DNA from: Patescibacteria group bacterium
GTDB taxonomy: Bacteria; Patescibacteriota; UBA1384; 2-12-FULL-50-11
Reading direction: 5' to 3'
DNA length: 64,000 nucleotides
NCBI GenBank assembly: GCA_038058635.1
Contig: JBBUAP010000002.1
Span: 20,948 to 84,947, forward strand
Every line of letters starts with the position of its first letter. Position 1 is the stretch's first letter. A program made the position numbers and the translations under genes. The notes under the pieces are model-generated. The model saw only the letters and a program-made list of their open reading frames with translations, had not been told where the DNA came from and ran no database searches. This document shows, piece by piece, positions 5,918 through 64,000 of the stretch.

Positions 5918-6019
5918 TTTCAGGCATAATACAGGGGTGAAAAACACTTATATCACCACCAGCATCGCTTACTGGAAAAGCTTGTACCAACAAGTCTTTT
6001 CAAGATGTGATGGAGAATA

Positions 6020-34524: not shown

Positions 34525-35637
34525 ATGAGGTCTTTGGAGGATGCGGCGCTAGCAAGTAAAGTAGTTTTAGTTCGGATCGACGCCGATGTTCCGTTGACGT
34601 TCGGCGATTCAGTCGAGGTGGCCAACGACTACCGCCTACAAAGGTTACTACCAACCATCTTCTTTCTAATGAACCACCGAGCCAAGATTATTCTCTGTGG
34701 TCATGTCGGACGGCCACTGGCGAAAGTCGACCCAAAATTGAGCATGAAGCCGGTTTTTACCCATCTATCGGCGTTGACTAACAAAAAAATCTTGTTTGCC
34801 ACCGACCCCTTCTCGCCCTTAACCAAGAAAACGATTGACGAGCTCAAAGAAGGAGAAATGATCGGGCTAGAGAATATTCGCTTTTTTAAAGGCGAAGAAG
34901 ATAACTCTCGTACCTTTGCTCGTAAACTCGCTAATCTTGCCGATATCTATGTTAACGACGCTTTCGGCACCTCGCACCGTGAAGCGGCCTCCGTGGTGGC
35001 AATAACGGAGTTTCTACCATCGTACGCTGGCTTACAGCTTGAACGGGAAATGGAAGTGCTGACAAGTTTAACTCGCCACCCCGCCCATCCGTTTATTGCT
35101 CTCGTCGGTGGGGCCAAGATTTCTGATAAATTACCAGTGATCCGAAACCTTCTACCTAAGGTTGATCGAGTCATTGTTGGCGGAGGAGTGGCTAACACCT
35201 TTTTAGCTAGCCAGGGCGTAGACATAAAAAACTCTAAGGTAGAGAAAGACTATGTTGACCGGGCTGGCGAAATGCTCAAGAATTCTAAGGGCAAAATCGT
35301 TCTCCCGGCCGATTATGTTTGGGAAAATGACATGATCCTTGATGTCGGCGAGAAATCGACGCTCCAAACTATTCAATACATAAAATCGGCCAAAACCATC
35401 CTCTGGAGCGGCGTGCCCGGCAAAATTGAACAGCCACCGTTTGATAAGGCATCTACTGCCATTGCTAAAGCTATTGCCAACTCACCGGCCACCAGCATTG
35501 TCGGTGGCGGCGATACCGTCGGTTTCATTGACGGCTTGGGATTGGCCCACAAGTATTCCTTCGTTTCGACCGGTGGCTCAGCTCTGCTCGAGCTATTGGG
35601 TGGGCGGGCTCTGCCCGGCATCCGGGCCTTGGGGTAA
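34525..35637 (+). CDS. pgk: phosphoglycerate kinase (short form)
   Basis: VLVRIDADVPL N-terminal substrate motif, the GGAKISDK hinge region, and VGGGDTV near the C-terminus. Confidence 0.85.
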   Translation: MRSLEDAALASKVVLVRIDADVPLTFGDSVEVANDYRLQRLLPTIFFLMNHRAKIILCGHVGRPLAKVDPKLSMKPVFTHLSALTNKKILFATDPFSPLTKKTIDELKEGEMIGLENIRFFKGEEDNSRTFARKLANLADIYVNDAFGTSHREAASVVAITEFLPSYAGLQLEREMEVLTSLTRHPAHPFIALVGGAKISDKLPVIRNLLPKVDRVIVGGGVANTFLASQGVDIKNSKVEKDYVDRAGEMLKNSKGKIVLPADYVWENDMILDVGEKSTLQTIQYIKSAKTILWSGVPGKIEQPPFDKASTAIAKAIANSPATSIVGGGDTVGFIDGLGLAHKYSFVSTGGSALLELLGGRALPGIRALG

Positions 35638-36552
35638 GGCGGGCGAAGTCACCTCGGGAGTTTGCAGGGCCAGGCCCTCCGTAGGGCCTGGCCCTGTGGG
35701 AGGTATGAGAGGCGTGGGTAGTGCAGGTGGTGGGGTCGGCGATTCGATCTGTCGGACCTCCTGTTCAATAACGGCCGCGGTTTGGACAACCCGGCTTTCT
35801 AGCTGGTAAATTTTTGCCAGCAACTCCTGTTCTTTGGCTAGGGCCAGTTTTTCAGCCGCGAATCCGCGACGAACCTTGCGGCTCAAGCGCAGAATCAAGA
35901 TAATCAGGACTGGTTCGGTCAAGAAGAAGAGAATGATGACCAATAAAACCCAAAATGGTATTTGCAGCTCCACATCGGTGTTAACCAGTCGTTCGTTGGC
36001 TGGTTTCGAGGGTTTGGGTTTAGCCGGCTCGAGTACTGTTAACTGACCACCGCCAGGAAGATTTATTTTAATTGTTAAATTAGTTAGAAACGGCAGGGGG
36101 GTGAATGTGACCGTTGGTTTATCATCGAGCGTCACCCCTTCGGCAACAGCGGTGAAGGTGGAGTTGCCAGGCACTTCGGAGCTTGCAGCACAACGAGCCT
36201 TACCCTCGGTATCGGTAACGGTCGCTCGGCTGTTGGTGAGGGTACTGCCTGAGTAGCAAAGAATAGTATCGACATCGCCTCGATTAGAGCTAACAGACAC
36301 CTGCTTGTTCGGTAGGGCCAGACCCTCTTTAGATAGGATAGTGGCAGTCAAAACGACGGCCGATTTACCATCGGCCGGTAACTGGACAATGTCGCTAACA
36401 AAAGTGGAAATCCCGGCATTGACCGACGAGACAACGGTGGCATTAACCGTTGTGTTTTGAGCCAAGACAATTGCTGGGATAACGACCAGGAAAGCCAGTG
36501 TCGCCAGAGAAAGCCTCGCACTTAAAGATTGGAAGCAGGTTTTGAGCTTCAT
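35593..36552 (-). CDS. secreted Ig-like (Big-like) domain protein with TM anchor, cytoplasmic coiled-coil and Pro-rich tail
   Basis: Signal peptide, then a roughly 130-aa beta-rich domain resembling bacterial Ig-like folds (SAVVLTATILSKEG...ATVTDTEGKARCAASSE), a TM helix (FWVLLVIILFFLTEPVLIILIL), KVRR, a heptad-like region, and a P/T-rich end. Last gene of the minus-strand surface operon. Confidence 0.5.
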   Translation of the reverse strand: MKLKTCFQSLSARLSLATLAFLVVIPAIVLAQNTTVNATVVSSVNAGISTFVSDIVQLPADGKSAVVLTATILSKEGLALPNKQVSVSSNRGDVDTILCYSGSTLTNSRATVTDTEGKARCAASSEVPGNSTFTAVAEGVTLDDKPTVTFTPLPFLTNLTIKINLPGGGQLTVLEPAKPKPSKPANERLVNTDVELQIPFWVLLVIILFFLTEPVLIILILRLSRKVRRGFAAEKLALAKEQELLAKIYQLESRVVQTAAVIEQEVRQIESPTPPPALPTPLIPPTGPGPTEGLALQTPEVTSPALPQGPDAGQSPPTQ

Positions 36553-38787: not shown

Positions 38788-38816
38788 GATCTTCAAAGGC
38801 CTGGCCTTTGAAGATC
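38788..38816. repeat. REP-like perfect palindrome (type a) between the giant gene and the downstream operon
   Basis: gatcttcaaaggcc-t-ggcctttgaagatc, a 14-bp stem. Same family as 53806 and 54546. Confidence 0.8.
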
Positions 38817-38874
38817 CTTCCCCCTCGTCGCATTTTTAATCCAGCGTTGCTCTCCTCGCTGAATCTGTCAAGCA

Positions 38875-47800: not shown

Positions 47801-50800
47801 ATTAGGATATTGTTGGTGGAAGTAGTGATAATAAACCCATATAGACTGTTGCCAATAGCGGTATTAGATGTCAGGGAGTTATTTGAGCTAGAGTCGATAA
47901 GGAAACCGTAGTTAACATTGCCGGTGGAGGTATTAGATGTCAGGGTGTTATTGTTGGCGCTGGAGTCGATACGGAAACCGTAGGAGGCGTTGCCAGTGGC
48001 GGAATTGGAAGTCAGGGTGTTATTGGCGCTGGCGTTGAGATAAAAGCCAGCAGTAGTATTACCTATAGCCGTATTGCTCGTCAGGGTATTGCTATTGGAG
48101 CTGACCTGAAGGTAGAAGCCGTAGCTGGTATTACCCGAAGCGATATTGTTAGACAAGGTATTGCTGTTGGCACTGCCGTTGAGATTAAATCCATAGAGAG
48201 TGTTACCAGCTGCCGAGCTGTTAGTGATACCCTTAGCGTTAGCGGTGTTGTTGTTGAGGGAGGCGGACAGTCGAGCGCCACGGTGGCCACTTCGTAAGCG
48301 CGATCGGTCAATGGTCACACCCTCGCTGGCGTTGGCGCCGTTGACAGAGTCGAATGTTACCCCAAATTTTAAGCTAGCATTGCGGCCTAGATCACAGACA
48401 TCGGCGTAATTCATAACTGTTTCCGAACCAGCGTTGGCATGAATATAACTTTCGCCAGCCTCATCATTCGTTGCGGTACAGGCAACGCCGTCTTCGGCGG
48501 TGACATTGGCGTAGTCATAAATTTCAAAATTATCTCCAGGTCTAACTCCGTCAGAGATATCTACCGTATCTCCGGAAGTGAAACCGGAGAATACATCGGG
48601 GGATTCGATGACTTTCAGGAGATCGTCGGTACCGGTACAGGAGGCAGAGTCGTTAGCGGAATCGGTGATCTGGAAGTAGCCCTTGGTGCTGGTAAAGTCA
48701 CGCATATACGAACCAATCTTTTGGTTATCTGCAGTAATGGAGTCAGGGATACAGACAGCCATAATGCCGTTATTGTTGGAGAGAGTTTTACTAGCGCTGA
48801 CAACGGAAGCGGTTGAGGTATCGGCTCTAGTAATGGAATCATAAGTAGCTGTATCACACTGAGCATCGTTGACGGTTGTGGCTGTGATGGCGTAGATCTG
48901 CCCGACAGCCAGACCACTTGTTGCTCGAACATGATTACCGTTGAACTGACTACTGGTGAAGGTGGAATTTGCGCAGAGCTTTGTTTCCCGGTTGTCGTAG
49001 TCGGTTATGGCGGTGGAGGTAGTTTCCGTAAGTGAAATTGCGCCGGTGACATTAAGTTTTCCGGTGGAAGCGACTTCCACACCGGTGTCAGATGCTGTCG
49101 CAGAGGATTTTGGAATGAGTTTGAGAATACCGTTTTCGTTGATGGTGAGAGTTCCTTGACCGCTACCGGAGCTTGCGCCGACATCAACTATACAGTTAGC
49201 GCATTGAGTGGCAGTATCTTTGTTGACTTGAACGGTGATGGTACTGCCTTCCGCCAGACCGTCTTTTGTTTGTAAAGTACCCGTTTCATTAGCGACGATA
49301 GCGATGTCAATACCGCCGTAAACAAGTAGGTTGTCGCCGTTACCATTACCAACCGTCACTGTACCGTTACTAACAACTAAGGTGTCAGCCGCTGGCGTAC
49401 CGGCTGAAGTGTCAACCAACATCGGGTCTTGAATGGTCCAAGCCCCAGCGACCCCGTTAAAGATAACTTTGAAGAAGGCCGAAGTACCGTTCAAAGTTCC
49501 GGAGATGGTATTACCGGCGTCAGTAGCGTTGAAGGTAATCGTACCGCTTCTGGCGGTGAAAGTGCCGGAGTTAGAGTAATTATTTCCTATTGTTAGAGCG
49601 TAGTTAGAAGCTGTCACATCCAAAATGGCGCTGGCATGGGTGATGGTTAAGTTGTTGGTAACGACGGTGTCGCCCTCCAGAACGAAAGTGTCGGCGGCGT
49701 TAAGTTCCAGATCGTAATACGAACTGGTCATAGATTGAATTGTGGTATTGCCTCCAGCATTGGCGCCGGTGTAGTAGAACTTGGAGGTGCCACCGACCAG
49801 AGCGCCGGCTGGGGAAGCGAGGAGTTGGAACGGATCGCCGCCGGTCCCGGAAAGAGTCCATGTGCGGTTACCGGCATTGAGGGTGGTTGTCGCTCCAGCG
49901 GCATCACCTGATTTACCAACCCTTAGAATATCCGAAACAGTAACACCTCCCGTCCCACCAGTTTGGGTGGTAACGGTAAACGGTGAAGAAGCATGGGAGT
50001 TAGAGAATGTTAAATCGTAGAAAGTCCAGGCAGTTGAACCAGAAGTAGTTCCGAAGTTCTTGGCCGCTCCAATTCGTTGTTCGAATGTCCCACCGGTCAA
50101 TGATATTATCCCGGCCGTCCCCGCCACCGCCCCATTAACAGTCACATTCTGCGTGCCATTCAGGGTTCCTGCGGTCATGGTCAGGTCGTTAGTAGCAATA
50201 AGAGCATCTTGGGGCGTCCAGCCACCACCCGAGCCGTCAAAGATGATGTCATAGAAAGACTGAGCGTTGGAAGTGATGGTTTTACCAGTGGCGACGGCGG
50301 CATAGGTAACGGTAGAAGTCCCTGGGGTTAAGGTTATTGTGCTACTGGAGTTGACGAATTTGGTGTTGCCGTAAACAGTAACGGAAGAGGTTTGGAGATT
50401 AAGGGCGTAGGCCGTGGTGCCAGTGGCGGTTGGTAGAAGCGAGTCGGTAGTGGAAGTCAGCGAAACGGTACTTGAACCAAAATTGGCCGTCATAGCGCCG
50501 ACACGAGAAGCGGTGTCACCCAGCTGAAAGTAACTGGCGGTCAGACTGAAGTTTCCAGTATTGAAGATACTACCGGTAACTGCGTTAGCCGCAACAGGAA
50601 TAAAATATCCAGTGGTGGTGACATTGCCAGAGAGCTGAGTCGTTGAGCCGTTACCCGAAGTGTGAAAAGCATATAAGTTCCAAGAACCGTAATTTCCAGC
50701 TGGAATACTGACGGTGATTGCAGCGGCGTTGGCGTAGCTAGCTAGCTGTCTCGTTCCTGTCAGCGTAGTGGCGGAAGCAAAAGCAATTGGGGTATTGCTG

Positions 50801-52818
50801 ACATTATTATAGATCTCGGTGTAGCTACTGGCGGAAGTGGCCGTACCGCCATTGAAGGTAAGAAGCGGAGTATTGCCGCTCGAACAGGCTAGGGTCTGGT
50901 AGCTGGAGAGCGTAGTGGTAAAGCCGGTGTAGGCAATGGAAAGTTTACAGAAGTATCCGTTAGTAATAGTGCCAGTGCCGTTCATTATCACCTGGTTTGC
51001 CCCCGAAGTATTGGCTTTTTGACCGACATCACTCCAGCTACCGCTAACGGTGATAGTGGAGCCACGGTACAAGAAACCAACGCCGGCGGTATTGGCGACG
51101 GTGACCGTGCCGGTGACGGTCAGGGCATAACTAGAAGTGCCGTTGGTATCGAATGAGCCGTTAGTAATGTCGAAATTATTGGCTGCTTCTAGAGCAGCGT
51201 TAAGGGTCCAGCCACCGGCGACGCCGTTAAAGACGATGTTGTAGAATTTTCCGGTAGCGCCGGTCATCGTGCCAGCTAATGTTTTGCCGGTAGCGGTGGA
51301 AGAAAATGTGACCGTACCGGTGGCGGCGGTGAAAGTGCCGGAGTTGGACCAGTTGCCGCTAACGGTGATGGCGTTAGTGGTGGAGACGGTAAGAGTTCCG
51401 CCAACATCAATCGTCACTCCTGCCACCGTGACCGAAGCGGTATCTTCAGTGATGTTGTGAGTATTTAATATCTGAACGGTATCTGCCGCTTGGGGAACCG
51501 TACCGCCACAGTTTTGCCATGATCCAGTCGCACTCCAGTTACCAGTGGCAAGTGACTGACAAGCGTTATCGGAAGCGATGAGCCAACTTCTGGGCTCCAC
51601 CCACTTCGTGGGATTGTTAGTTTCTAATACTTCTGAAGGACCTAACTCAAATAAATATGGTGATATATTAGGAGTTTTAAAGGTGTATGTCAGTGGGTAA
51701 GTTTGACCGGCCTTGGCATCGATATTCCAGCTCAACTTAGTTGGGCTATCCGCAGTCTTGGTTACTTCTGCTTTGGTATCTTTAATCTCAAAATTGCTGG
51801 GAACAAATTCATCCAAGCTGTAACTGCCGGCTTTCTTAGCTTCAAAATTCAAGGTGTAGTCGTAGTCGACTGGCGGGTAAGTTCTGGTGACGCCGACTCG
51901 TTGGAGGTAGAAATCTTGATTGGCTTTGACGCTGAACTGGTCGTGAAGGGTTCTGGTGCCTTCGCCGGCTTTGGCAATAATTTTGACCTCGTAGTCACCC
52001 TCAACCGATGGTTTGAAGTTGGCTTCGTAGTCGGGTCGATCAGTTTTACCGTAAACTTCACAGTCTTTGTTGACCCGAACGGTACCATCGGCAGTGTTGA
52101 GCGTTGTGGTTCTGCCGTTTGGATCGGTGACTTCAACAGTCATTGCGGCTGTACAGACCATTTTGCCACGATCATCGAGCACCGCCAGACTGAAGAAAGC
52201 ATCTTTGCCGACAGGGTAAACGGCGTAGTCGGGGTTGAAAGCTAACACTCCCCAAAGAACTTTTTGGTCGTTGAGGACAATGCCTGAATCTTTTTGGACT
52301 GTCTCGACTTTATAGGCGCCGGCTGTCAGCCCTTGATCTTTTGACTCGATAGTTAAGGCGTCTTCAGTTGTTGAAACAGAAATATCTTTGGTTCGGTCTT
52401 CAGCGCCGACTTCTTTGACAAGCTTAACTTCGGTCTGACTGATATTAGTGTCGGATTTCTCGAGCTTGATAGTATCTTCGGCTGGTACGACTTCGTAATT
52501 ACCCTCGAAATATTCGTTGGGCTGGCTGCTACGGGCGGTAACTTCGGCAACAGAGAGAAACTGTGAGTCGATATCGGTAGTTTCTACGATCTTGATTTGG
52601 CTCGTATTGTCAGGATTAACTGCCTTGTCGATTTGAGCTCGGATCGGACCAAAATAGGCCAGCACCCCAAGCCCAATAACTAGAGCAAAGAAGATTGAGA
52701 AAAATCTAACTGGATGATAGGCGTATTCAGACAACACCGTTGCCCGGGTCTGTCGGTAGATACCATCAAGACGAGTTTTGGCTTTTTCAACCCGCGCCGT
52801 CATCTGGCTTTCTCCCAT
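38875..52818 (-). CDS. giant (4,647 aa) membrane-anchored parallel beta-helix (PbH1/NosD-like) repeat surface protein with an internal 2,118-aa tandem duplication
   Basis: Uninterrupted 13.9-kb ORF. Probable start at Met6 (52803) after a GGGAGA SD. N-terminal TM (FFSIFFALVIGLGVLAYF). Two large repeat units, each containing T/S/G/N-rich beta-rich modules and 10 or more PbH1-type 22-23-aa repeats (NTLTSNTAIGN-x-YGFYL...). C-terminus ...EAFTITHKVSVSELQEANPYTTEVLYILTGTF. Confidence 0.8.
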   Translation of the reverse strand: MGESQMTARVEKAKTRLDGIYRQTRATVLSEYAYHPVRFFSIFFALVIGLGVLAYFGPIRAQIDKAVNPDNTSQIKIVETTDIDSQFLSVAEVTARSSQPNEYFEGNYEVVPAEDTIKLEKSDTNISQTEVKLVKEVGAEDRTKDISVSTTEDALTIESKDQGLTAGAYKVETVQKDSGIVLNDQKVLWGVLAFNPDYAVYPVGKDAFFSLAVLDDRGKMVCTAAMTVEVTDPNGRTTTLNTADGTVRVNKDCEVYGKTDRPDYEANFKPSVEGDYEVKIIAKAGEGTRTLHDQFSVKANQDFYLQRVGVTRTYPPVDYDYTLNFEAKKAGSYSLDEFVPSNFEIKDTKAEVTKTADSPTKLSWNIDAKAGQTYPLTYTFKTPNISPYLFELGPSEVLETNNPTKWVEPRSWLIASDNACQSLATGNWSATGSWQNCGGTVPQAADTVQILNTHNITEDTASVTVAGVTIDVGGTLTVSTTNAITVSGNWSNSGTFTAATGTVTFSSTATGKTLAGTMTGATGKFYNIVFNGVAGGWTLNAALEAANNFDITNGSFDTNGTSSYALTVTGTVTVANTAGVGFLYRGSTITVSGSWSDVGQKANTSGANQVIMNGTGTITNGYFCKLSIAYTGFTTTLSSYQTLACSSGNTPLLTFNGGTATSASSYTEIYNNVSNTPIAFASATTLTGTRQLASYANAAAITVSIPAGNYGSWNLYAFHTSGNGSTTQLSGNVTTTGYFIPVAANAVTGSIFNTGNFSLTASYFQLGDTASRVGAMTANFGSSTVSLTSTTDSLLPTATGTTAYALNLQTSSVTVYGNTKFVNSSSTITLTPGTSTVTYAAVATGKTITSNAQSFYDIIFDGSGGGWTPQDALIATNDLTMTAGTLNGTQNVTVNGAVAGTAGIISLTGGTFEQRIGAAKNFGTTSGSTAWTFYDLTFSNSHASSPFTVTTQTGGTGGVTVSDILRVGKSGDAAGATTTLNAGNRTWTLSGTGGDPFQLLASPAGALVGGTSKFYYTGANAGGNTTIQSMTSSYYDLELNAADTFVLEGDTVVTNNLTITHASAILDVTASNYALTIGNNYSNSGTFTARSGTITFNATDAGNTISGTLNGTSAFFKVIFNGVAGAWTIQDPMLVDTSAGTPAADTLVVSNGTVTVGNGNGDNLLVYGGIDIAIVANETGTLQTKDGLAEGSTITVQVNKDTATQCANCIVDVGASSGSGQGTLTINENGILKLIPKSSATASDTGVEVASTGKLNVTGAISLTETTSTAITDYDNRETKLCANSTFTSSQFNGNHVRATSGLAVGQIYAITATTVNDAQCDTATYDSITRADTSTASVVSASKTLSNNNGIMAVCIPDSITADNQKIGSYMRDFTSTKGYFQITDSANDSASCTGTDDLLKVIESPDVFSGFTSGDTVDISDGVRPGDNFEIYDYANVTAEDGVACTATNDEAGESYIHANAGSETVMNYADVCDLGRNASLKFGVTFDSVNGANASEGVTIDRSRLRSGHRGARLSASLNNNTANAKGITNSSAAGNTLYGFNLNGSANSNTLSNNIASGNTSYGFYLQVSSNSNTLTSNTAIGNTTAGFYLNASANNTLTSNSATGNASYGFRIDSSANNNTLTSNTSTGNVNYGFLIDSSSNNSLTSNTAIGNSLYGFIITTSTNNILMSNSATGNISSGFLLNVSSSNNILSSNTSTGNGSWGFRLSISNNNTLIGNQSGGQSYGLYVSDNTASTGNVIINDVYGATANTTADIIFAGTNAHTLSLYNTTLSSSTEVTGVTVAGAYIVSRKHDTSAGATKLWGEYAIPADTAETPQVESTDKFNYANNLWEKSMTAHGYSGTGTEDTNLSYDLSAPADLSAGPYAYRLVTKTAGVGASCVTSQAVMDVYRNGTDVGDLTTGTLFTDSTGAVNTKFTVDCGATPYALNATYTFVAYDADNSTSTIKPMTMMTDGDIFTVGSGKTLEMKGQTTATNLTTVTRGATGGYHFDVAGTIDAQYYKFSNLGGTSGANGLDLQSGATLTNLDDGQFDNFQNVGATDTYIKVHGSLIGTGAPAKTWDNMIFLEASDNVPEYTVTQTATGAPAAGNYWSFFGSTCTGWTDCEASDSDTGDGGADTYGFLHFSSSISIQGIVYLTNESTIGTSGNGGPCDGSTAIITARVNGGSAATATCSASTAAYTVYLAITPTAGQTVTIYLTSASKGNAVTLSNAVTETGVDIYIDQVAVRHDNAGPQTNTGLDLYDIDQNATDMLFTVTTGNLSVTAGKALHITTGKTFTPGGTVTTGLAGDLHIVGTLSMGGNALSIGGSYNNAGTFTSASNTTTFTSTATGKTLAGTMTGASSFYNLTFDGVAGGWTYSNAVAATNDFTVTNGAVTANNLALTVTRDFTLANTAGVSYTAGSSTITVSRHYTDTGEKFVYGTSTVTANGTGTITTVSGYDFYNLSIGYTGFTTTLTGADFRLNNGTLTFNGGTVAGAGQNYIDLYRTTTGSSVVFASATTITGSTNMAFINNSASITNTVAGGNYGSWLLDLNNRSSGNNSVLQLGGDLTTTNGVRTGATTGLTGYIFNTQNYAINASYMGINSSTAYKGDTTHNFGSSTVTLTSTGDSLYVVSNGGTSNQLNLQTSTFNIYGSTKFLNGTGTVNVNPGTSTVNMTAVATGKTITSNGQSFYNLVFNGVGGGWTLQDAMSVTNNFDITNGTFDTNTTFNYALTIGGNLTGNAGTWSLTERASTITVSGNWDTSAVATDSLSIVEGTSTVIMDGAGTKTITTGVTNTYEPRFYNLNVGQAGGKTTQMLQSFGIDNVLTLGAGTFDLNSKTFYLQSPPTNPLSLSGTWGTGNGQIYIFGGSANTNFPAYTYNSGFVNQLPSTYSIIFQGTTTFTGNMSLGGCCSLANITNLNGQTVTVNGNIDFTTTTAILTMGAANLTVKGNWTNSNAAVFNADTSTVDFAGTSGTQTVITGGTGSTKQFYNLTHSGASILSLSTTALQVANDLSNAGGTMSGGVDVTVNGSATGVGAITMSGSSLFTQRVGASKNFGTTSGSNAWTFVSLTFSNSHASSPFTVTTQTGGSGGITVSSILLVGASGDAAGATTTLNAGNRTWILSGTAGDPFQLLASPAAVLTPATSTFSFWGNNAGGNTTVQVATYYNLNTGCLNIFCIETYDLEGNTTVTNDLTIDVPATLDTVSGSNWGLTIGGNYSNIGTFTARSGTVTFNATDSGNTLSGTLNGTSAFFKVIFNGVAGAWTIQDPMLVDTSAGTPAADTLVVSNGTVTVGNGDADNLLVYGGIDIATTADQTAILQTMDALAEGSTITLQVNKDTSTQCANCIVDVGASSGSGQGTLTINENGILKLIPKSSATASDTGVEVASTGKLNVTGALSLAATSSTAITDYDNRETKICANADFSVGYTSKHVRTTSGLAIGQIYAITATTTDDAQCDTGTHDSITRADTSTASVVSASKTLSNNNGIMSVCIPDSITADNQKIGSYMRDFTGTKGYFQIVDSANDDASCTGTNDLLKVVESPDVFSGFTSGDTVDISDGVRPGDNFEIYDYANVTAEDGVACTATNDEAGESYIHANAGSETVMNYADVCDLGRNASLKFGVTFDSVNGANASEGVTIDRSRLRSGHRGARLSASLNNNTANAKGITNSSAAGNTLYGFNLNGSANSNTLSNNIASGNTSYGFYLQVSSNSNTLTSNTAIGNTTAGFYLNASANNTLTSNSATGNASYGFRIDSSANNNTLTSNTSTGNVNYGFLIDSSSNNSLTSNTAIGNSLYGFIITTSTNNILMSNSATGNISSGFLLNVSSSNNILSSNTSTGNGSWGFRLSISNNNTLIGNQSGGQSYGLYVSDNTASTGNVIINDVYGATANTTADIIFAGTNAHTLSLYNTTLSSSTEVTGVTVAGAYIVSRKHDTSAGATKLWGEYAIPADTAETPQVESTDKFNYANNLWEKSVTAHGYSGTGTEDTNLAYDLSAPADLSAGPYAYMLVTKTAGVGASCVTSQAVMDVYRNGTDVGDLTTGTLFTDSTGAVNTKFTVDCGATPYALNATYTFAAFDADNSTSTIKPMTMMQDGDIFTVGSGKTLELKGQTTSTNLSTVTRGASGGYHFDVAGTIDAQYYKFSYLGGTSGGNGLDLQSGATLTNLDDGEFDNFQNVGATDTYITVHGSLIGTGAPAKTWDNMTFLEASDNVPEYSVTQTATGAPAAGNYWALYPSTCTGWSDCEASDSDTGDGGSDSLGFLHWQVNTNPNDPSALAQKKTDDTVLAVGDWTNETSVKFTATASDTDNPDTLYLCVEKDLIADAFANTEDSCGSGVAYSGTPVTVVLTIAGITDANEYHWQARVKDTFGGYSGWISFGANPEANRDFGVDTTACTYGSSIYDGTVEDVDASYNDGSLTAVSANWDAFTCTVSGLNKYQYSIGTTSGGTDIKAWTDNSTTESVTSGSLILRTNQNYFFNVRAVDNATNTSGVTSSNGQSVLPTISLSLGAVTITFANLNNGNNRSDSKTLVLTSSTNAYGGYVIRQYASSLLTKGVKTIPMFEGGTYASPGAWPGGTCTPSTNCGYGYTSDDTTIQGVNKFSTGTLYAPLSLTAFGDIIADHTTAVDGTSGPVTNEAFTITHKVSVSELQEANPYTTEVLYILTGTF
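39400..51400. repeat. intragenic tandem duplication, period 6,354 bp (two copies), with a 1.28-kb block of apparent nucleotide identity
   Basis: Antisense ORF pairs are offset by exactly 6,354 nt (40801/47155, 41312/47666, 41727/48081, 41846/48200, 42085/48439) with identical translations over 40960..42238 vs 47314..48592. The flanks are diverged but homologous. Confidence 0.85.
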
Positions 52819-53080: not shown

Positions 53081-53683
53081 TCATAGGTTTTTAGCTAAAT
53101 TATCTTTAACCATTTTTTTAACAATATCTTCAATCTCTTTGCCACCAGTATCTTTGTGGCGAATCAGACCGGCGATACTATCAGCCAACCTGATTAAGGC
53201 ACTACTTTGATCTTTGAGACCTCTAACTTTTCCGTGAATTCCGGCCCGATGCAGAATTTTGCTGGTCTTTTGTCTTTCCCTCTCATTTAGACCATCAACG
53301 ATAACCGTCGCTTTGTAGCTCTTGATATGGCGTGATTGGGCGTAGAGATTAAGGGCTTGAGTAATAACAATCGCTGTCAAATCTTGGTAGGATTTGGTGT
53401 CTGTGTATTCGCGATAGAATATTTTACCCTTAAGCCAGGTCGGCTTGAGTGAGAGTTCTAGATATTTGATTCGGCGGTCGGGTTTGGTATTTGTCCATTT
53501 GATCTTTCCTCGTCCGCTCTCATGTTCGCATCGCTCCAAAAACTCCTCTATTTTTTCTTTTTCCGTTCCCGTTACAACAGCAACTACAATAAAAAGCTTT
53601 CCAAGAGTATCTTGTCCTGTTTCGTCAACAAAACAGTAAAGCTTTTCAGTTTTCGAGGACGGCGACTTTTTTGACACAGTCAT
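53081..53683 (-). CDS. DUF3800-family protein
   Basis: N-terminus LYCFVDETGQDTLGKLFIVVAVV matches the DUF3800 DESG motif region. 200 aa. Confidence 0.55.
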   Translation of the reverse strand: MTVSKKSPSSKTEKLYCFVDETGQDTLGKLFIVVAVVTGTEKEKIEEFLERCEHESGRGKIKWTNTKPDRRIKYLELSLKPTWLKGKIFYREYTDTKSYQDLTAIVITQALNLYAQSRHIKSYKATVIVDGLNERERQKTSKILHRAGIHGKVRGLKDQSSALIRLADSIAGLIRHKDTGGKEIEDIVKKMVKDNLAKNL

Positions 53684-53805
53684 ACTCTAAAACTCCCCCT
53701 CTCCCCTGTAAGTGGATAAATTCAAACCCTCCATGTATATTTACCATGCCTACTTTTCTCGGGGTCGTCAACTAAATTAACAGGTTCAAAAAAAGAGATA
53801 CAACC

Positions 53806-53834
53806 AATCTTCAAAGGCCAGGCCTTTGAAGATT
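53806..53834. repeat. REP-like perfect palindrome (type a), abutting the stop of RAYT-like gene 1
   Basis: aatcttcaaaggcc-a-ggcctttgaagatt, a 14-bp stem. Confidence 0.85.
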
Positions 53835-53835
53835 C

Positions 53836-54522
53836 TTAATCAAGAGTCAAATGCTGGATTACCTCGAGATCGTCCTGTGCTTTGGCGTAGTCTTCGATGA
53901 AAAATTGATAATTACGACTGGTAGATCGTAGATCCCTCTTATCTTTAGCGGCAAATAACCCAAGAGGAATCCCTGGGTCTAGCCAAGGATTTTCGCGTCG
54001 TTCTAAGTAGTTCGCATATGAACAGTAGGGATAGTCGCGAAGTTCGTCTAGGGAAACGCCAAGATCTAAGGGGTTTAAGTTAATATAGCGCGATAAATGT
54101 GCTAATTGCTCATCGGTTTTTACCAGCACCGCCTTATACCTTCCTTGGAATAAACTACCGACTCGTTCGTAGCGCTTATTGAAGTAGACGCAATATCGAG
54201 ATGATAAGGACTGCAAGAAATCTTTCATTGCAGTCATATTGCTTTGATGAACAAGAAGGTGGAAATGGTTTGGCATTAAAGCGAATGCTTCAAGTGTTAT
54301 TACATCACCGTAGTTTCGTCGAGAATAATAATCTCCGCTCGTCTTGAGCTGGTCTTGCTTGGCATCGTTGAGAATCGGCTGGGATAGGTACTCTCTCAGA
54401 TAATTCAAAAAGACTTTATAGTCCTGAGGAGAGGCGAATATCTCCCTTTTTTCAACACCCCGATTATAGACATGATAATGGCCGTGTTCGACATATGTCT
54501 TTCGTGAATTTTTCTGAGGCAT
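53836..54522 (-). CDS. REP-associated tyrosine transposase-like protein (IS200/IS605 TnpA-like HuH Y1 family, COG1943-type), copy 1
   Basis: HuH motif in MPNHFHLLVHQ. C-terminal helix GSLFQGRYKAVLV...LSRYINLNPLD with the conserved Tyr, comparable to HVDYIYINPVKHG of RAYTs. N-terminus GHYHVYNRGVEKREIF. Flanked on both sides by palindromes. Confidence 0.75.
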   Translation of the reverse strand: MPQKNSRKTYVEHGHYHVYNRGVEKREIFASPQDYKVFLNYLREYLSQPILNDAKQDQLKTSGDYYSRRNYGDVITLEAFALMPNHFHLLVHQSNMTAMKDFLQSLSSRYCVYFNKRYERVGSLFQGRYKAVLVKTDEQLAHLSRYINLNPLDLGVSLDELRDYPYCSYANYLERRENPWLDPGIPLGLFAAKDKRDLRSTSRNYQFFIEDYAKAQDDLEVIQHLTLD

Positions 54523-54545
54523 ATATCCATATTAGTCAGGATTCT

Positions 54546-54578
54546 CCAATCTTCAAAGGCCTGGCCTTTGAAGATTGG
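54546..54578. repeat. REP-like perfect palindrome (type a), 24 nt upstream of the RAYT-1 start and 5 nt after the PEBP stop
   Basis: ccaatcttcaaaggcc-t-ggcctttgaagattgg, a 16-bp stem. Confidence 0.85.
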
Positions 54579-54582
54579 GTTT

Positions 54583-55263
54583 TTACTTTTTTGCGCGGGT
54601 GTAGCTGGCGGTGATCTTGTATTTGGCGATTGAGTTGTTTTCGATAACTTTTTTGGCTTCGGTCAGGCCGACATCGGAAGTAATGGGCAGAGAGTCTTTT
54701 TCAATGAAATATAGAGCGAAGACATACTTGTGGGTTTCGCCTTCTGGTGGGCAAGGACCGCCGTAAGCAAAATTGCCGAATATATTGCGACCGATCGTGC
54801 CAGGAGGACGAATGCCTTGGGTAAATTTTGTTGTAGAGGCGGGAATATTCCAAACCATCATGTGAGCTCGGTAAGGGGAGTCGGCAAACTCTTTCTTGTC
54901 CAAGTCTTGATCTTCGACGATAAAAGCCAAGCTCTTGGCTTCCGCGGGGGTATCCTTGATAGTGAACTCGGGACTAAGATTGTCGCCATCACAGGTAAAC
55001 TGGGCGGGCAGTGTACCACCATTTTTGAAGGAAGGACTACCGAGTTTATTTCCCGTTTCGGAATCGGCTTCACGCTGATTATTCCACGCCATACCAGAGA
55101 AACCGATTATCACAATCAAAATCAGCATAGCGATGTTGTAGGGGTTTCGGAAAAAACGAACTATCCATATCTGAGGTCGTCTCGGTAACCAGGTCAAAAT
55201 GATGGCTATGTTAGTCAGCCTCGGCAGTCGTAATTTTGGAAATGGTACTTTCGGTAGTCGCAT
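54583..55263 (-). CDS. YbhB/YbcL-type phosphatidylethanolamine-binding protein (PEBP/RKIP) family, membrane-anchored
   Basis: GGTLPAQFTCDGDNLSPEF...SLAFIVEDQD...VWNIPA...GPCPPEGETHKYVFALYF is the bacterial PEBP signature. N-terminal TM. The likely start is an internal Met (MLILIVIIGF...). Confidence 0.7.
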   Translation of the reverse strand: MRLPKVPFPKLRLPRLTNIAIILTWLPRRPQIWIVRFFRNPYNIAMLILIVIIGFSGMAWNNQREADSETGNKLGSPSFKNGGTLPAQFTCDGDNLSPEFTIKDTPAEAKSLAFIVEDQDLDKKEFADSPYRAHMMVWNIPASTTKFTQGIRPPGTIGRNIFGNFAYGGPCPPEGETHKYVFALYFIEKDSLPITSDVGLTEAKKVIENNSIAKYKITASYTRAKK

Positions 55264-55317
55264 GTTCTTAAGTAACCTTAACCAGCACTAAAGCACAAGC
55301 TGTATGGTTGCCTCAGA

Positions 55318-55360
55318 AAGTACCACACCATAAAGGCCAGGCCTTTATGGTGTGGTACTT
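55318..55360. repeat. REP-like perfect palindrome (type b), overlapping the stop codon of RAYT-like gene 2
   Basis: aagtaccacaccataaaggcc-a-ggcctttatggtgtggtactt, a roughly 21-bp stem. Same AAAGGCC-N-GGCCTTT core as type a. Confidence 0.85.
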
Positions 55361-56028
55361 AATCAATTATTAAGTGCTTAATAATTTCCGATTGTTTATT
55401 GTCTTCACCCTCAACAAACTGTCGGTAGAACCTCTCTGGAGTGCGATTCGCATTACCCCGAAACAGATCTAGAACGATATTCTTGTTCAGCCACGATTGG
55501 TGACGCTTGCCTAAATAGCCGGGGTATGAGGAGTATCTGAAGTCTTCAAGAGAGGTCACCGATTTGTCTAAATCGATCGGGTTCAGGTGAATATATCTCG
55601 AAAGATGGACAAGTTGCTCATCTGTCTTAACTGTAACCGCCTTGTACCTACCCTGGAATAAACTCCCAACCCGATCGTAGCGCTTATTGAAATAGACGGT
55701 GTAGCGCGTGGAGAGAGACTGAAGAAACTCTTGCATCGCATCGATGTTTTCTTGTCGAATCAATAAATGAAAGTGATTTGGCATTAAGACATAAGCTCCA
55801 AGCTGGATGACGTTGGTATAGCATTTTATCTGATAGCGTTTCTCGTTTGTATGAATATCATTACTCGAAGTGTCTAGAATGGGTGGGGAAAGATATTCAC
55901 GGAGGTAAGTTAGAAAAACTTTATAGTCTTGCTCTGAGTCAAAAATATTTCTCTTCTCAACACCTCGGTTGTAGATATGGTAATAACCATGCTCTAAATA
56001 TGTTTTGCGAGAATTGCGCTGAGGCATA
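55359..56028 (-). CDS. REP-associated tyrosine transposase-like protein (HuH Y1 family), copy 2
   Basis: MPQRNSRKTYLEHGYYHIYNRGVEKRNIF...MPNHFHLLIRQ...GSLFQGRYKAVTV...LSRYIHLNPIDL. About 65% identical to copy 1. The track ORF extends to 56141 through the upstream palindrome. Start set at the Met homologous to copy 1. Confidence 0.75.
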
Positions 56029-56045
56029 ATTAAATGGTACACCAT

Positions 56046-56088
56046 ACCACCACACCATAAAGGCCAGGCCTTTATGGTGTGGTGGTAG
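56046..56088. repeat. REP-like perfect palindrome (type b), upstream of RAYT-like gene 2
   Basis: taccaccacaccataaaggcc-a-ggcctttatggtgtggtggta, a 21-bp stem. Confidence 0.85.
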
Positions 56089-59560: not shown

Positions 59561-59881
59561 TACTAAGTTCTAAGTCCTTTCCGACCACGGGGCCGAAACG
59601 GAATTACAATTAGCTTATTAACAATTGACACAACCGTCAGTTGAGTGTTTTCTGCCCCCGCAGAATCATTCAAGCATTTGGCGGTTGCAAGAATGCCAGT
59701 TTACGAGAATGGTTATTCTTCGCTTCATGCGAAGAAGATGCACCAAGGGCGTAAGCCCCTGGAGCATTATTTAACTCGTACCCCTGCGCAAAGCGCAGAG
59801 CTGCTAGCCACTGGCTGGTGGCTTCTAGCTGAGTACAGGGTGCACGGAAGCTTTATGCTTCTATATATGAGAGTTTGATCA

Positions 59882-59913
<32 letters not shown>

Positions 59914-60210
59914 AACATGCAAGTCGAATGGGTTAGACCCATGGCGAACGGGTGAGTAATGCACAAGAACTTGCTCCGAAGTTGGGGATATCCCCTCGAA
60001 AGAGGGAGTAACACCCAATGGTCTCAGCCCCAGTTTAAGGAAGAGACTACCAATAATTTGGTTAGTCGTTGCTTTAAACTGGAGCTGAGTAAAAATTTAT
60101 TGCTTCGGAAGAGGCTTGTGTCCTATCAGCTAGTTGGTGAGGTAATGGCTTACCAAGGCGATGACGGGTAGTTGGTCTGAGAGGATGACCAGCCACAGTG
60201 GAACTGAGAT

Positions 60211-60951
60211 AAAATTTTGTCTCCATGGTAAAGAAATTTCCATGTAAAATTTGGCTAATAACGGTGAAACCCTACTTCATATCAGGTATACTGATATGAG
60301 TATGAGGGCAATACCGTGGGAAGTCGGATGCATAAGTTAGGTAGTGAAAAGTTAGCCTACATTGCGGGGTTTCTTGACGGCGATGGCTGTATTGCCATCA
60401 ATTATGAAAAACGAGAAACCTGCAAATTAGGCTATCGAGTTAGGGTGCGAGTGAGTTTTACCCAAATCTCTACTCGCAGGAAAGTGCTTGATAAACTGTT
60501 TTCCTGGATTAAGTCGGGAACAGTTGATGAATATGAGCACAATCATATGGCGGAGTATGTTATTCGCGATCAGCAGGTTGTGAATAGCCTGCTCAACGAA
60601 TTATTACCCTTTCTCATTGTTAAGAAGGAACATGCGAAATTAGCACTGAAAGTTCTGGAACTAAAACAGGAAAAATACAGTGTCAAATCGCTCAATGAAA
60701 TGCGGCAGTGCGCCATTTCATTGCGAAGTTTAAATCACTACCCCAAACGAATCCATCTTGACCCCGTAACGACTGAGGCTTAAGTGCCGAGACTTCGACA
60801 ATTCGTTGTCGGGGTAAGACGCCAACCCCTCCTCCATACTCAAATATGGAAAGGGTGAAGATATACACTTCTAGCGAAGTGGTTTCTTCACTCCACGGTA
60901 GTGGAGAGGGTGAAGATATAGTCTGCGCCACTAGTAATAGTGGGTAACGTG
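60211..60951 (+). mobile_element. 16S intron 1 (after about E. coli position 328), group-I-like (5' exon ends in U, intron ends in G)
   Basis: Exon sequence ...GGAACTGAGAT | ... | ACGGTCCACACTCCTACGGG. Contains a repeated gggtgaagatata motif downstream of its ORF. Confidence 0.75.
60316..60783 (+). CDS. LAGLIDADG homing endonuclease (single-motif, homodimer type), intron 1
   Basis: LAYIAGFLDGDGCI motif. 155 aa. Confidence 0.8.
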   Translation: MGSRMHKLGSEKLAYIAGFLDGDGCIAINYEKRETCKLGYRVRVRVSFTQISTRRKVLDKLFSWIKSGTVDEYEHNHMAEYVIRDQQVVNSLLNELLPFLIVKKEHAKLALKVLELKQEKYSVKSLNEMRQCAISLRSLNHYPKRIHLDPVTTEA

Positions 60952-61019
60952 ACGGTCCACACTCCTACGGGAGGCAGCAGTTGGGAATCGTCGGCAATGC
61001 CCGAAAGGGTGACCGCGCG

Positions 61020-61057
<38 letters not shown>

Positions 61058-61114
61058 TCTTTTATGAGGGATGATTATGACAGTACCTCAAGAATAAGGG
61101 GCTGCTAACTACGT

Positions 61115-62078
61115 GAAACTTGAAATAAAGTTTGGCGCGTAGAAACCTGGTAACAGGTTAGAGAAAATTCCACTATATGCTGGAACACTCTGGAAATGAA
61201 CAAATACTCGCCCACCTGGGCAGTGAAAATTTTGTTTAAACCCGCAAAGTCCACCGCTGGACAGCAATGGGTTCTGGAGCAATCAGCAGGGAAGAGCATC
61301 TCGCTTGAAAAGCGAGGGTAAACTCCCCCCAGAGACTACACGTGGAACCCGATAATGCTAGGATGGTGATATGTCGCTGTTAACACAGCTCGTATCATCG
61401 TTCGATGATGATATGTCGCCGCTTTGCGGCTCGTATCATCACCTCGAGCACTCGGTGATGATATAGTCCAAGCAAGAAGAATGACAGAAAGAGTGAAAGA
61501 GATATTGATTGGTGTAACCCTAGGTGACGGATATTTAACGTCTTTTAGTGGGAAGAGCCAAAAATCCAGCCTAGATATGAAAGTGGCTGAAGATAAATAT
61601 CAGTATCTAAATTGGCTCCGTCACGAGCTCGCAGAGCTAGGCGGATCCGGACTGACTAAAAGAAGTGATAATAATCAATTCCGGCTAGTCACCCAAAGAA
61701 ATTTGGAGATTGGTCGAATACGAACACTTTTCTATCCTAACGGAAAGAAATGTATTCCAAGTAACATCGACCAACTTCTAATCAGTCCGTTAACATTGGC
61801 GATATGGTATCAGGATGATGGTACGCTCGATTATCGAGATAAGTATCATTACAACGCCTTGTTTGCCACTCACCGTTTCTCGCATTCCGGTTGCGAATTA
61901 TTGACATCGGCTCTTCAAAAAAACTTCGGACTTGATGTTCGAGTTTGCCGATGCCAGATGCGAGGCAAAGTTAATTATAGACTTTATGTCGTGTCGAAAA
62001 GCATGGATCGTTTTCTTGGCCTAATTCGGCCATATATCCATCCTTGCTTTCAATATAAAATTCGTGATCTGAAAGCAA
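61115..62078 (+). mobile_element. 16S intron 2 at the S516-equivalent site (CGU|GCCAGCAG)
   Basis: ...GGGGCTGCTAACTACGT | ... | GCCAGCAGCAGCGGTAATAC. The 5' end of the intron carries repeated tcgtatcatc / gatgatat hairpin words. Confidence 0.75.
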
Positions 62079-62095
62079 GCCAGCAGCAGCGGTAA
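61481..62095 (+). CDS. LAGLIDADG homing endonuclease (double-motif), intron 2. The ORF runs into the downstream exon.
   Basis: ILIGVTLGDGYL and LAIWYQDDGTL motifs. The stop TAA lies inside the exon sequence GGTAATAC. The track ORF starts at 61424. Confidence 0.75.
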   Translation: MTERVKEILIGVTLGDGYLTSFSGKSQKSSLDMKVAEDKYQYLNWLRHELAELGGSGLTKRSDNNQFRLVTQRNLEIGRIRTLFYPNGKKCIPSNIDQLLISPLTLAIWYQDDGTLDYRDKYHYNALFATHRFSHSGCELLTSALQKNFGLDVRVCRCQMRGKVNYRLYVVSKSMDRFLGLIRPYIHPCFQYKIRDLKASQQQR

Positions 62096-62351
62096 TACGT
62101 AGGCCCCGAGCGTTATCCGGAATTATTGGGCGTAAAGTGCGCGTAGGTGTTTTTGTAAGTCGGTCGTTAAATCTCACAGCTCAACTGCGAGACCGCGAGC
62201 GATACTACAAGAATTGAGTTTTGCAGGGGCTAGCAGAATTTCTGGAGTAGGGGTGAAATCCGTTGATACCAGAAGGAATACCAATGGCGAAGGCAGCTAG
62301 CTGGGCAATAACTGACACTGAGAGCGCGAAAGCGTGGGGAGCAAACGGGAT

Positions 62352-63421
62352 CGATGGTATCTGGTCCCCCGGTACGGTGACGTATCGGTAAAAATCTGTC
62401 TGTCTGGGTGCGATTTTCGCAAGAAAATTAAAATCCAGAAGACTGTAGTTTGTGCGAGAGCACAGACACAGGCTATATGCTGGAATCTCTGGTGTACTTA
62501 AGGAGCAATCCAACAAGTGCTTCTGTCGCAAGACGGGAACCAGACAATCAGCAGGAAACCGTTACTGATATGATAAAAGTAATGGGATCCTCAGAGACTA
62601 CACGCCAGATGACTCACATGAACCAGAAACTAGCTATGCTGTTAGGATTTCTCTATACAGATGGCTGTGTTTCTCCGAAAGGGAAGAGTTGGCGAATCTA
62701 TTTTGCCGTAAAATCTCAAGAATTAGTCGACTTGTTTCGGGATTGCGTAGTTACAACTTTCGCAATCGATCCGAAACGAGTTCGAGTGAGAGTTAGAACT
62801 TCAGGCCTAACGGCCGCTGTAGTTGACTCGAAGTCTATCGGCACCTACCTAACGACACGATTCGGAACATTCCGAACCTTGAAGTTTGAAAATGGTGACT
62901 TACCGAAGACGAAATTGCCCGTATCCGCCCTGAAAAAGAGTGGCTACGTGGAGGACTTCTTGAGAGTCGCATTCAGCTGTGACGGAGGCGTAAGTCTTTA
63001 TCCAGCAATGCGAAACAGCAAAAACGGAAAAACCAAATGGTTGATTAGAACGGTTTTTATCTCTTGTGCCCATCCACAGATGCGATCGGATTATCTAGCT
63101 TTATTAAAAAGTCTGGGTATCTATGTTCGCAATGTAGCAACGGATGGCAAGCTTAAGATTGAGCGAGAACGAGATATTCGTCTCTTCGCTAAAAAAATCG
63201 GCTTCGTTGATGGAGTGAAAGCAACGCTAGACTCCAAGTTCTGGAGTGGATACGAGAAAAATGAAGTTCTACGGATCCTCATCAACTCGTACGGCCAACC
63301 AGCAACAATCTATCAACTACCCAAATTCAGTGAGTCAATGATATAGTCCGACCTCTGCAGCGATGCAGAGAGATGCGACAATTACCGCAAGTCGTGTCCA
63401 TCGAAAGATGTAACAATATTG
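62352..63421 (+). mobile_element. 16S intron 3 at the S788-equivalent site (GGAU|UAGAUACCC), group-I-like
   Basis: ...GGGGAGCAAACGGGAT | ... G | TAGATACCCCGGTAGTCC. 5' exon ends in U and the intron ends in G. Confidence 0.8.
62450..63346 (+). CDS. LAGLIDADG homing endonuclease (double-motif), intron 3
   Basis: LLGFLYTDGCV and FLRVAFSCDGGV motifs. The real start is probably an internal Met (about 62570, MIKVMGS...). Confidence 0.7.
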   Translation: MCESTDTGYMLESLVYLRSNPTSASVARREPDNQQETVTDMIKVMGSSETTRQMTHMNQKLAMLLGFLYTDGCVSPKGKSWRIYFAVKSQELVDLFRDCVVTTFAIDPKRVRVRVRTSGLTAAVVDSKSIGTYLTTRFGTFRTLKFENGDLPKTKLPVSALKKSGYVEDFLRVAFSCDGGVSLYPAMRNSKNGKTKWLIRTVFISCAHPQMRSDYLALLKSLGIYVRNVATDGKLKIERERDIRLFAKKIGFVDGVKATLDSKFWSGYEKNEVLRILINSYGQPATIYQLPKFSESMI

Positions 63422-63918
63422 TAGATACCCCGGTAGTCCACGCCCTAAACTATGTCTACTAGCGATAGGAAGAGTCGACCCTTTCTGTCGCGAAGCTAAC
63501 GCGTCAAGTAGACCGCCTGGGAAGTACGATCGCAAGATTAAAACTCAAATGAATTGGCGGGGGCTCGCACAAGTGGTGGAGCATGTGGTTTAATTCGACA
63601 GTAAGCGAAAACCTTATCCCAGATTTGACATCTAGCGAATCCCCAAGAAACTGGGGAGTGCCCGTAAGGGAGCGCTAAGACAGGTATTGCACGGTCGTCG
63701 TCAGTTCGTGGCGTGAGCTGTGAGGTTAAGTCCTTAAACGAACGAAACCCTTGTCCTATGTTGGATTTTCATAGGAGACTGCCCTGGTAACAGGGAGGAA
63801 GGTGGGGATGACGTCAGATCCGCGTGGTCTTTATGTCTGGGGCTACACACGTGCTACAATCCTATCGACAATGGGTCGCCAAGCCGCAAGGCGGAGCTAA
63901 TCCCATCAAAAGATAGGT

Positions 63919-63963
<45 letters not shown>

Positions 63964-64000
63964 ACTAGTAATCGTGGATCAGAACGCCACGGTGAATACG

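Follow-up and report, generated by a model that had tools for sequence, protein, structure and literature searches.

A low-copy, REPtron-like arrangement of two Y1 HUH paralogs and their cognate palindromes in a Patescibacteria genome

Repetitive extragenic palindromes (REPs) and the REP-associated tyrosine transposases (RAYTs) are a textbook example of a domesticated bacterial transposase. To our knowledge, studies of REP/RAYT systems have been limited almost entirely to Proteobacteria, and wholly to REPs that carry a GTAG tag. We know of no DNA partner for the largest group of RAYT-like proteins, which is called subclass 2.1 or group 1. Here we describe two diverged Y1 HUH genes, RAYT1 and RAYT2, and the palindromes that enclose them. 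They lie in a stretch of 64,000 nucleotides (positions 20,948 to 84,947 of contig JBBUAP010000002.1, assembly GCA_038058635.1), which we call the window. The host is represented by a metagenome-assembled genome (MAG) of Patescibacteria, or the Candidate Phyla Radiation (CPR), and is Berkelbacteria-like. The locus was also found in GCA_964366935.1 and in ERZ1292638. The hosts have very small genomes, in which any retained repeat is notable.

Subclass 2.1 is the group 1 RAYT of Bertels and corresponds to the TIRYTs of Di Nocera (PMC6006769; PMC5581495; PMC3733652). Its members are characterized by the motifs NH[YF]H, FQ, Y[IV]HLNP and a proximal SS, and by a median length of 238 amino acids (aa); no REP-like sequences were found for this subclass (PMC6006769). 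The classic RAYTs of subclass 2.2 have a median length of 165 aa (PMC6006769). REPs that are perfect palindromes are known for one group of REPtrons (PMC8266576), i.e., of REP/RAYT units. Our literature search found no paper on RAYT, Y1 or REP in Patescibacteria or CPR.

The locus is a real, low-copy relative of the REP/RAYT systems of Proteobacteria. Its layout is REPtron-like, and it is not a canonical RAYT/REP system. The two genes and the palindromes around them are as follows (coordinates are those of the window).

53836..54522, minus strand: RAYT1, a 228-aa Y1 HUH protein with the motifs NHFH, FQ, YINLNP and CSY
53806..53834, no strand: type-a perfect palindrome, AATCTTCAAAGGCC-A-GGCCTTTGAAGATT, 14-nt arms, 1 nt beyond the RAYT1 stop; fold as single-stranded DNA (ssDNA) -12.6 kcal/mol, z = -6.2
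54546..54578, no strand: perfect palindrome of type a with 16-nt arms, between a PEBP gene (4 nt after its stop) and RAYT1 (23 nt before its start)
55359..56027, minus strand: RAYT2, a 222-aa Y1 HUH paralog with the motifs NHFH, FQ, YIHLNP and SSY
55318..55360, no strand: perfect palindrome of type b with 21-nt arms, sharing 2 nt with the stop codon of RAYT2; ssDNA fold -22.3 kcal/mol, z = -9.1
56045..56087, no strand: perfect palindrome of type b with 21-nt arms, in the divergent intergenic region between tig (trigger factor) and RAYT2, 17 nt before the start of RAYT2

The explanation that we favor, with a probability of roughly 0.6, is that the locus consists of two resident, diverged class-2 Y1 HUH paralogs, each in its own REPtron-like cassette with cognate palindromes, and that the hairpins would be ssDNA substrates of the enzyme.

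Both genes encode class-2 Y1 HUH, RAYT/TnpAREP-like proteins with the motif signature of subclass 2.1. An earlier reading of this DNA, made without database searches (the sequence-only reading), had noticed two paralogous Y1 HUH open reading frames (ORFs) on the minus strand. The Pfam family Y1_Tnp (PF01797) matches both proteins well above its cut-off of 23 bits (36.7 and 37.6 bits; E = 5e-9 and 3e-9). RAYT2 starts with MPQR at 56027, and the listed 260-aa ORF is an extension upstream of this start. Both Y1 genes are intact. Their products are 59% identical, which is less than the 65% or so first estimated. The HuH motif and the catalytic tyrosine in the YIxxNP context, seen in the earlier reading as well, are invariant in an alignment of 36 family members. 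The invariant residues are N85-H86-x-H88, F125-Q126, Y146-I147-x-x-N150-P151 and S168. The regions of HuH and Y146 align with the HuH and catalytic Tyr region of ISDra2 TnpA, and the tyrosine motif is that of class 2, Y---NP (YINLNP in RAYT1 and YIHLNP in RAYT2).

The identification of the proteins as RAYTs stands only in part. REP_Tyr_transpos (NF047646) is their sole NCBIfam match, but the scores of 44.4 and 49.8 bits are below the equivalog cut-off of 80. The top PDB fold match of the AlphaFold (AF2) model of RAYT1 (pLDDT 86.8) is 4er8_A, the E. coli RAYT-REP complex (E = 2.4e-7), followed by the TnpA proteins of ISDra2, IS608 and IS200 (including 2xo6 and 2vjv). PDB searches by sequence only were marginal, with E about 0.03-0.04. 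The length of 220-230 aa had been regarded as a RAYT hallmark; it is well above the median of the classic RAYTs of subclass 2.2 and fits subclass 2.1 instead. By inspection against Table 1 of PMC6006769, the motifs NHFH, FQ, YI[HN]LNP and [CS]SY together with 222-228 aa fit TnpAY1 subclass 2.1. Subclasses 2.2 and 2.5 (classic RAYTs) were rejected as a poor fit. A C-terminal Bac_DnaA_C, HTH_23 or HTH_28 domain is typical of subclass 2.1, whereas here Pfam gave no match besides Y1_Tnp even at E <= 10. Among representatives of clusters at 50% identity, the close family numbers 183 at E <= 1e-30; a limit of E <= 1e-10 gives 8122. All of its members with a named source are from CPR bacteria.

The palindromes of types a and b, five in the window including a solo copy described below, have arms that are 100% complementary and a single central base. 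Their common core AAAGGCCNGGCCTTT (AAAGGCC-N-GGCCTTT) is found in five copies against 0.02 expected, and none of 100 shuffles reached five. The two types are labeled by their sequences, ..ATCTTCAAAGGCC for type a and ..ACCACACCATAAAGGCC for type b. The claim that perfect palindromes with this core bracket each gene, close to its start and stop, is upheld. As ssDNA, the hairpins of the window are predicted to fold with -12.6 to -23.7 kcal/mol (z = -6 to -9). At the feet, the window copies have in common only a GG that follows three of the four type-a copies compared, the copy of L003 being among the four.

The coupling between gene and palindrome is family-wide, and an AGG..CCT apex is shared. 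We analyzed 88 non-redundant homologous genes obtained by a metagenome scan for relatives and from contigs encoding homologs. The density of perfect hairpins with a stem of at least 9 bp is 2.79 per kb in the 150 nt next to the gene ends vs 0.133 per kb elsewhere. Such hairpins are present on both sides of 16 genes, 13 of which have the same sequence on both sides. Under a broader definition of AGG-apex palindromes, the flanks contain 4.68 per kb and the background 0.091 per kb, an enrichment of about 50-fold. At least one such palindrome flanks 53 of the 75 genes with both flanks evaluable (71%), and 31 of the 75 have them on both sides. The unit AGG-xy-N-y'x'-CCT has 2.45 copies per kb of flank and 0.031 per kb of background. 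Thus the enrichment is about 20- to 80-fold across hairpin definitions. The sequence of the hairpin differs from gene to gene, for example ACCTTGCAAGGAG-N-CTCCTTGCAAGGT in L020 and CCTGCAGGGCC-A-GGCCCTGCAGG in L042, and the larger palindromes often consist of two small units in inverted orientation, similar to REPINs. Protein similarity is higher among genes with the same apex type: the observed difference was reached in none of 5000 permutations, and in 67 of 5000 when the window clade was left out.

Cognate units are also found in frame inside the genes of relatives, where they cluster at aa 52-64 and aa 149-172. One internal copy is present in 16 loci and two or three in ten; loci with internal copies include L020, L028, L029, L047, L068 and L099, and LQGASFKG is an example of the encoded peptides. 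Both segments have almost no regular secondary structure (DSSP on the model), and the first of them is also of low confidence. RAYT1 and RAYT2 themselves have no internal hairpin copy.

The locus and the 88 related genes point to short perfect palindromes with an AGG..CCT apex as a candidate DNA partner of proteins with the subclass 2.1 signature. Moreover, one genome here offers two enzyme-hairpin pairs that can be tested, RAYT1 with type a and RAYT2 with type b, and the two hairpin types differ only in the outer stem.

In orthologs, the hairpins are conserved beyond neutral expectation, with turnover and chimerism between relatives. Locus L013 (GCA_024653705.1), with about 78% nucleotide identity to the window, has the order tig, RAYT2 ortholog (70% aa identity), PEBP. 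At the syntenic site it lacks RAYT1 and both type-a hairpins, and a clean empty site for RAYT1 was not found there: the intergenic DNA is too diverged to define junctions. A type-b hairpin follows the RAYT2 ortholog of L013, with the outer stem altered on both arms as compared to the window. A RAYT1 ortholog with 75% identity, again located after PEBP, is present in L108; type-a hairpins surround the gene, and their arms are identical to those of the window despite saturated synonymous sites. The suggestion that each paralog keeps its own hairpin subtype is supported by these two loci. A more distant relative in L110 (56% identity) uses AGGGCC-N-GGCCCT. The proportions of nonsynonymous (pN) and synonymous (pS) differences between orthologs are 0.14-0.18 and 0.74-0.84, respectively, the latter being saturated. 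Therefore, the genes are old residents under purifying selection. Each cluster of homologs has one genomic context over the 24 contigs read per protein, which come from differing samples. The constant contexts and the syntenic orthologs argue against an active insertion sequence (IS) and against the role of PEBP as cargo.

The gene concerned is the following.

54583..55263, minus strand: PEBP/YbhB-family gene (Pfam PBP, E = 2.6e-28), between the two cassettes

PEBP had been taken for a cargo gene enclosed by hairpins. This was rejected because tig, RAYT2 and PEBP are syntenic in L013, which lacks RAYT1 and the type-a hairpins. PEBP is a conserved neighbor, a bystander between two cassettes. 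The neighbors of the Y1 genes in the window are DUF3800, PEBP and tig, with no tnpB among them. Two diverged Y1 paralogs 2-5 kb apart were also observed in other CPR genomes (L017, at 789-1478 and 6001-6687; L053; L089), and the clustering of paralogs may be a family trait.

Two elements of the window stand apart from the Y1 genes.

38788..38816, no strand: type-a palindrome, solo, 14-nt arms, between the gene of a giant beta-helix protein and the next gene, with a 23-nt direct repeat around it
35665..35696, no strand: inverted doublet (AGGGCC-A-GGCCCT)ccgt(AGGGCC-T-GGCCCT), solo, representing a third hairpin type whose cognate gene is absent from the window

The first of them had been noticed before and is indeed a perfect palindrome. 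The copies of the direct repeat around it (38655-38677 and 38815-38837) are 91% identical and 160 nt apart, and each is seemingly part of a TTGACA...GAGGGGGAA promoter/Shine-Dalgarno-like leader that belongs to the 412-aa gene downstream. The arrangement suggests a local duplication linked to the solo hairpin. The doublet is located 28 nt past the PGK stop, inside the C-terminal part of a Big_1-domain ORF (35593..36552, minus strand). The unit AGGGCC-N-GGCCCT flanks the homolog P0009 on both sides in L110, and the doublet looks like a REPIN-like solo element of the third hairpin type.

Palindromes are not confined to the five sites of the window. A hairpin identical to type a lies 13 nt after murB in L003 (Berkelbacteria), with no Y1 gene within this 8-kb locus. 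Solo copies are also present in L013, L042, L047 and L056, and extra cognate copies in L042/L043, L047 and L056. Away from the Y1 genes, the density is about one unit per 30-60 kb. We also scanned the GTDB species-representative genomes, a set without the species of the window, with a degenerate a/b pattern. The scan gave ten matches, of which five are non-palindromic chance matches inside genes; each genome with any perfect a/b-like palindrome has one to three of them.

Two hybrid hairpins of L013 (2997-3025 and 5843-5873) combine a type-b left arm, CCCCATAAAGGCC, with a type-a-like right arm, GGCCTTTTTGAAG or GGCCTTTTAGGATTGG. L013 has no RAYT1 at the syntenic site. These hybrids suggest strand exchange between the types at the shared core. 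Stuttered partial left arms (gaatcttcaaagg, ttttaaggcc) precede complete hairpins in L108 (170-260) and L109 (590-650 and 1360-1422), and the contigs of both loci terminate within palindromes. The stuttered arms could be real slippage, aborted joining or an assembly effect.

Among the known systems, REPtrons of E. coli, Pseudomonas and Stenotrophomonas (subclasses 2.2 and 2.5) have in common with the locus the Y1 HUH fold with Y---NP, low-copy diverged paralogs whose two gene ends each carry the paralog's own palindrome family, and further copies, solo or as REPIN-like doublets, at other sites. However, REPtron proteins are about 150-165 aa long, compared with 222-228 aa here, and usually have W[EQ] in place of FQ. 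The window proteins are below the NCBIfam RAYT cut-off, their palindromes have no GTAG/GTGG foot, a handful of copies is seen instead of more than 100 per genome, and the host belongs to CPR. The proposal of a REP/REPtron system in a CPR genome thus holds as to cognate flanking palindromes and solo copies, while there is no foot and high-copy dispersal is unsupported.

The motif signature and the length of the window proteins agree with subclass 2.1 (TIRYT/TIRtron, about 238 aa). A gene between two identical palindromes also has terminal inverted repeats (TIRs), and some TIRs of TIRtrons are reported to be self-complementary and moderately repeated. In contrast to TIRtrons, the GGGGWSAS TIR motif is absent from the flanks in the window and in homologs, which have self-complementary hairpins with the AGG..CCT apex instead. 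The frequency of flanking repeats is low in group 1 (PMC5581495). The genes here have cognate hairpins, whereas no REP-like hairpins were found for subclass 2.1 in the literature.

Hairpins in frame within the gene are known in subclass 2.4 of Cyanobacteria and Bacteroidetes (PMC6006769) and are present in relatives of the window genes. Proteins of subclass 2.4 have WQ and YIxNNP, unlike those described here, and their REPs have GT[AG]G feet. The insertions in our family occupy two fixed loops, one preceding the HuH strand and one directly behind YIxLNP, and not the segment between HuH and Y; the two genes of the window lack them. IS200 (TnpA-only, subclass 1.1) is similar in having a HUH Y1 gene that is about 0.7 kb long and lies between hairpins, and the fold matches IS608, ISDra2 and IS200 TnpA. 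Its transposases have the Y---Q motif and about 150 aa, and it is present in numerous near-identical copies, whose subterminal hairpins are imperfect and in direct orientation; the locus has no such features. Membership in IS200/IS605 (1.1) was ruled out by Y---NP, by the lack of identical copies and by the lack of tnpB among the neighbors.

If the hairpins are substrates, as in the favored explanation, the mechanism can be outlined by analogy with E. coli TnpAREP (PMC3333891, PMC8266576) and with the structures of IS608 and ISDra2 TnpA. The palindromes would fold into hairpins once the DNA is single-stranded, and the protein would bind the apical AGG/CCT stem. Cleavage would probably occur nearby, with a metal bound by H86/H88 and with Tyr146, which would form a covalent 5'-phosphotyrosine link; the enzyme would then rejoin the strands. 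The expected outcome is that hairpins are copied, exchanged or deleted, mostly in cis. Action mainly in cis would explain the hairpins at the two ends of the gene, in two permissive loops within it in many relatives and at a few intergenic sites nearby. The gene itself would pass vertically and would not hop as an insertion sequence.

Several points weigh against this explanation. The copy number of the hairpins is low, both in the window and in the GTDB representatives of other species. Neither GTAG nor any other conserved foot or guide motif was detected beside 65 flanking hairpins, in disagreement with the 5' tetranucleotide anticipated from proteobacterial REPs, and a cleavage site therefore cannot be placed. 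In a comparison of the 5' and 3' hairpins, inverted and direct loop orientations are mixed across loci and follow no rule. About 29% of the homologs with both flanks evaluable have no perfect flanking palindrome. According to the literature, subclass 2.1 has no REP association (PMC6006769); unless this clade forms an exception, the motif assignment must be wrong. Finally, hairpins are located at stop codons and in promoter regions, and they may also, or instead, function in regulation or at the RNA level.

Such a role leads to a rival explanation, in which the palindromes act chiefly at the RNA or transcriptional level, as terminators, stabilizers of mRNA 3' ends or operators of a dimeric regulator, and tell nothing about the substrate of the enzyme. 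We regard it as improbable. Hairpins do abut the stops of RAYT1, RAYT2, PEBP and, in L003, murB; the copy at 56045 occupies the divergent tig/RAYT2 promoter region; and Proteobacteria REPs have secondary roles of this kind according to the literature. A consensus scan for promoters and terminators also marks two type-a copies, and only these, as terminator-like, yet one of the two lies opposite the gene strand, the counts in the window are not above those in shuffles, and the window hairpins have no T-tract on the gene strand. Terminators explain neither the in-frame copies at two fixed loops in relatives nor the identical sequence both upstream and downstream of a gene. The enrichment is specific to the flanks of this Y1 family, and the apex type tracks the protein. 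Another rival holds that each hairpin-gene-hairpin unit, about 770 bp long, is a minimal IS200-like element that moves autonomously as a whole by peel-and-paste, and that two of them landed by chance around PEBP. It would account for the size of the unit, the TnpA-only layout, the absence of the RAYT1 unit with both type-a hairpins from the syntenic L013 and the very short contigs of many homologs, as often seen with repeats. Nevertheless, we regard it as improbable too: near-identical copies are lacking and the paralogs are only 59% identical, the tyrosine motif is not that of IS200 transposases, each cluster keeps a single context, the "empty site" of L013 has no clean junction, and the position of RAYT1 after PEBP in L108 and of RAYT2 beside tig in L013 at saturated pS indicates long vertical residence.

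A further alternative would make the Y1 proteins fully domesticated hairpin binders that do not mobilize DNA, i.e., autoregulators or replication/repair accessories at cruciforms, with solo hairpins as relics. The invariant catalytic HuH and Tyr, the cognate copies within the gene's own loops, and the gain and loss of hairpins together with the hybrid b/a hairpins in close relatives, which imply ongoing strand exchange, speak against it. So does the perfection of the palindromes despite saturated neutral divergence, which suggests continual regeneration. We consider this alternative unlikely, although each gene has a single locus and is inherited vertically under purifying selection, the hairpin copy number is low, and group 1 RAYTs have housekeeping-like distributions (PMC5581495). 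The favored explanation, two resident paralogs with hairpins as probable substrates, can be carried further, and here we are tentative: the CPR clade might supply the missing DNA substrate of subclass 2.1/group 1, which among RAYT groups is both the largest and the one understood least. The enzymes would recognize short perfect AGG-NN-N-NN-CCT hairpins without a GTAG guide and write them in cis at the gene ends and into two of their own loops. They would then be self-marking, hairpin-specific ssDNA recombinases kept vertically in minimal genomes.

Some other features were observed beside the main subjects. Perfect 25-nt palindromes ACTTTAAAGGCC-N-GGCCTTTAAAGT are present inside long ORFs of AT-rich MAGs (L006, L008, L011 and L012), the version of L006 being TCTTT.../...AAAGA. 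One of these MAGs is labeled Gammaproteobacteria, yet it has an orthologous locus in common with a Patescibacteria MAG. The palindromes may be intragenic hairpin insertions, and the Gammaproteobacteria MAG may be mislabeled.

The beta-helix gene next to the solo type-a hairpin (38875-52818) encodes a giant NosD/beta-helix repeat protein of 4647 aa with a large internal duplication. It includes identical imperfect inverted repeats at 41214-41245 and 47568-47599, which are 6354 nt apart. The 16S rRNA gene (59871-64000) is split by two group I introns, 61105-61479 and 62392-63370, and the ORFs within them match LAGLIDADG genes called on homologous contigs. Group I introns in the 16S rRNA gene are typical of CPR bacteria.

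A leader of 123 nt (53670-53791 in the window, 4546-4668 in L013) is 88% identical between the two loci, which exceeds the identity of the flanking genes. Downstream of it are DUF3800 in the window and small ORFs with an NYN-domain gene in L013. It looks like a conserved promoter/leader ahead of a variable gene slot.

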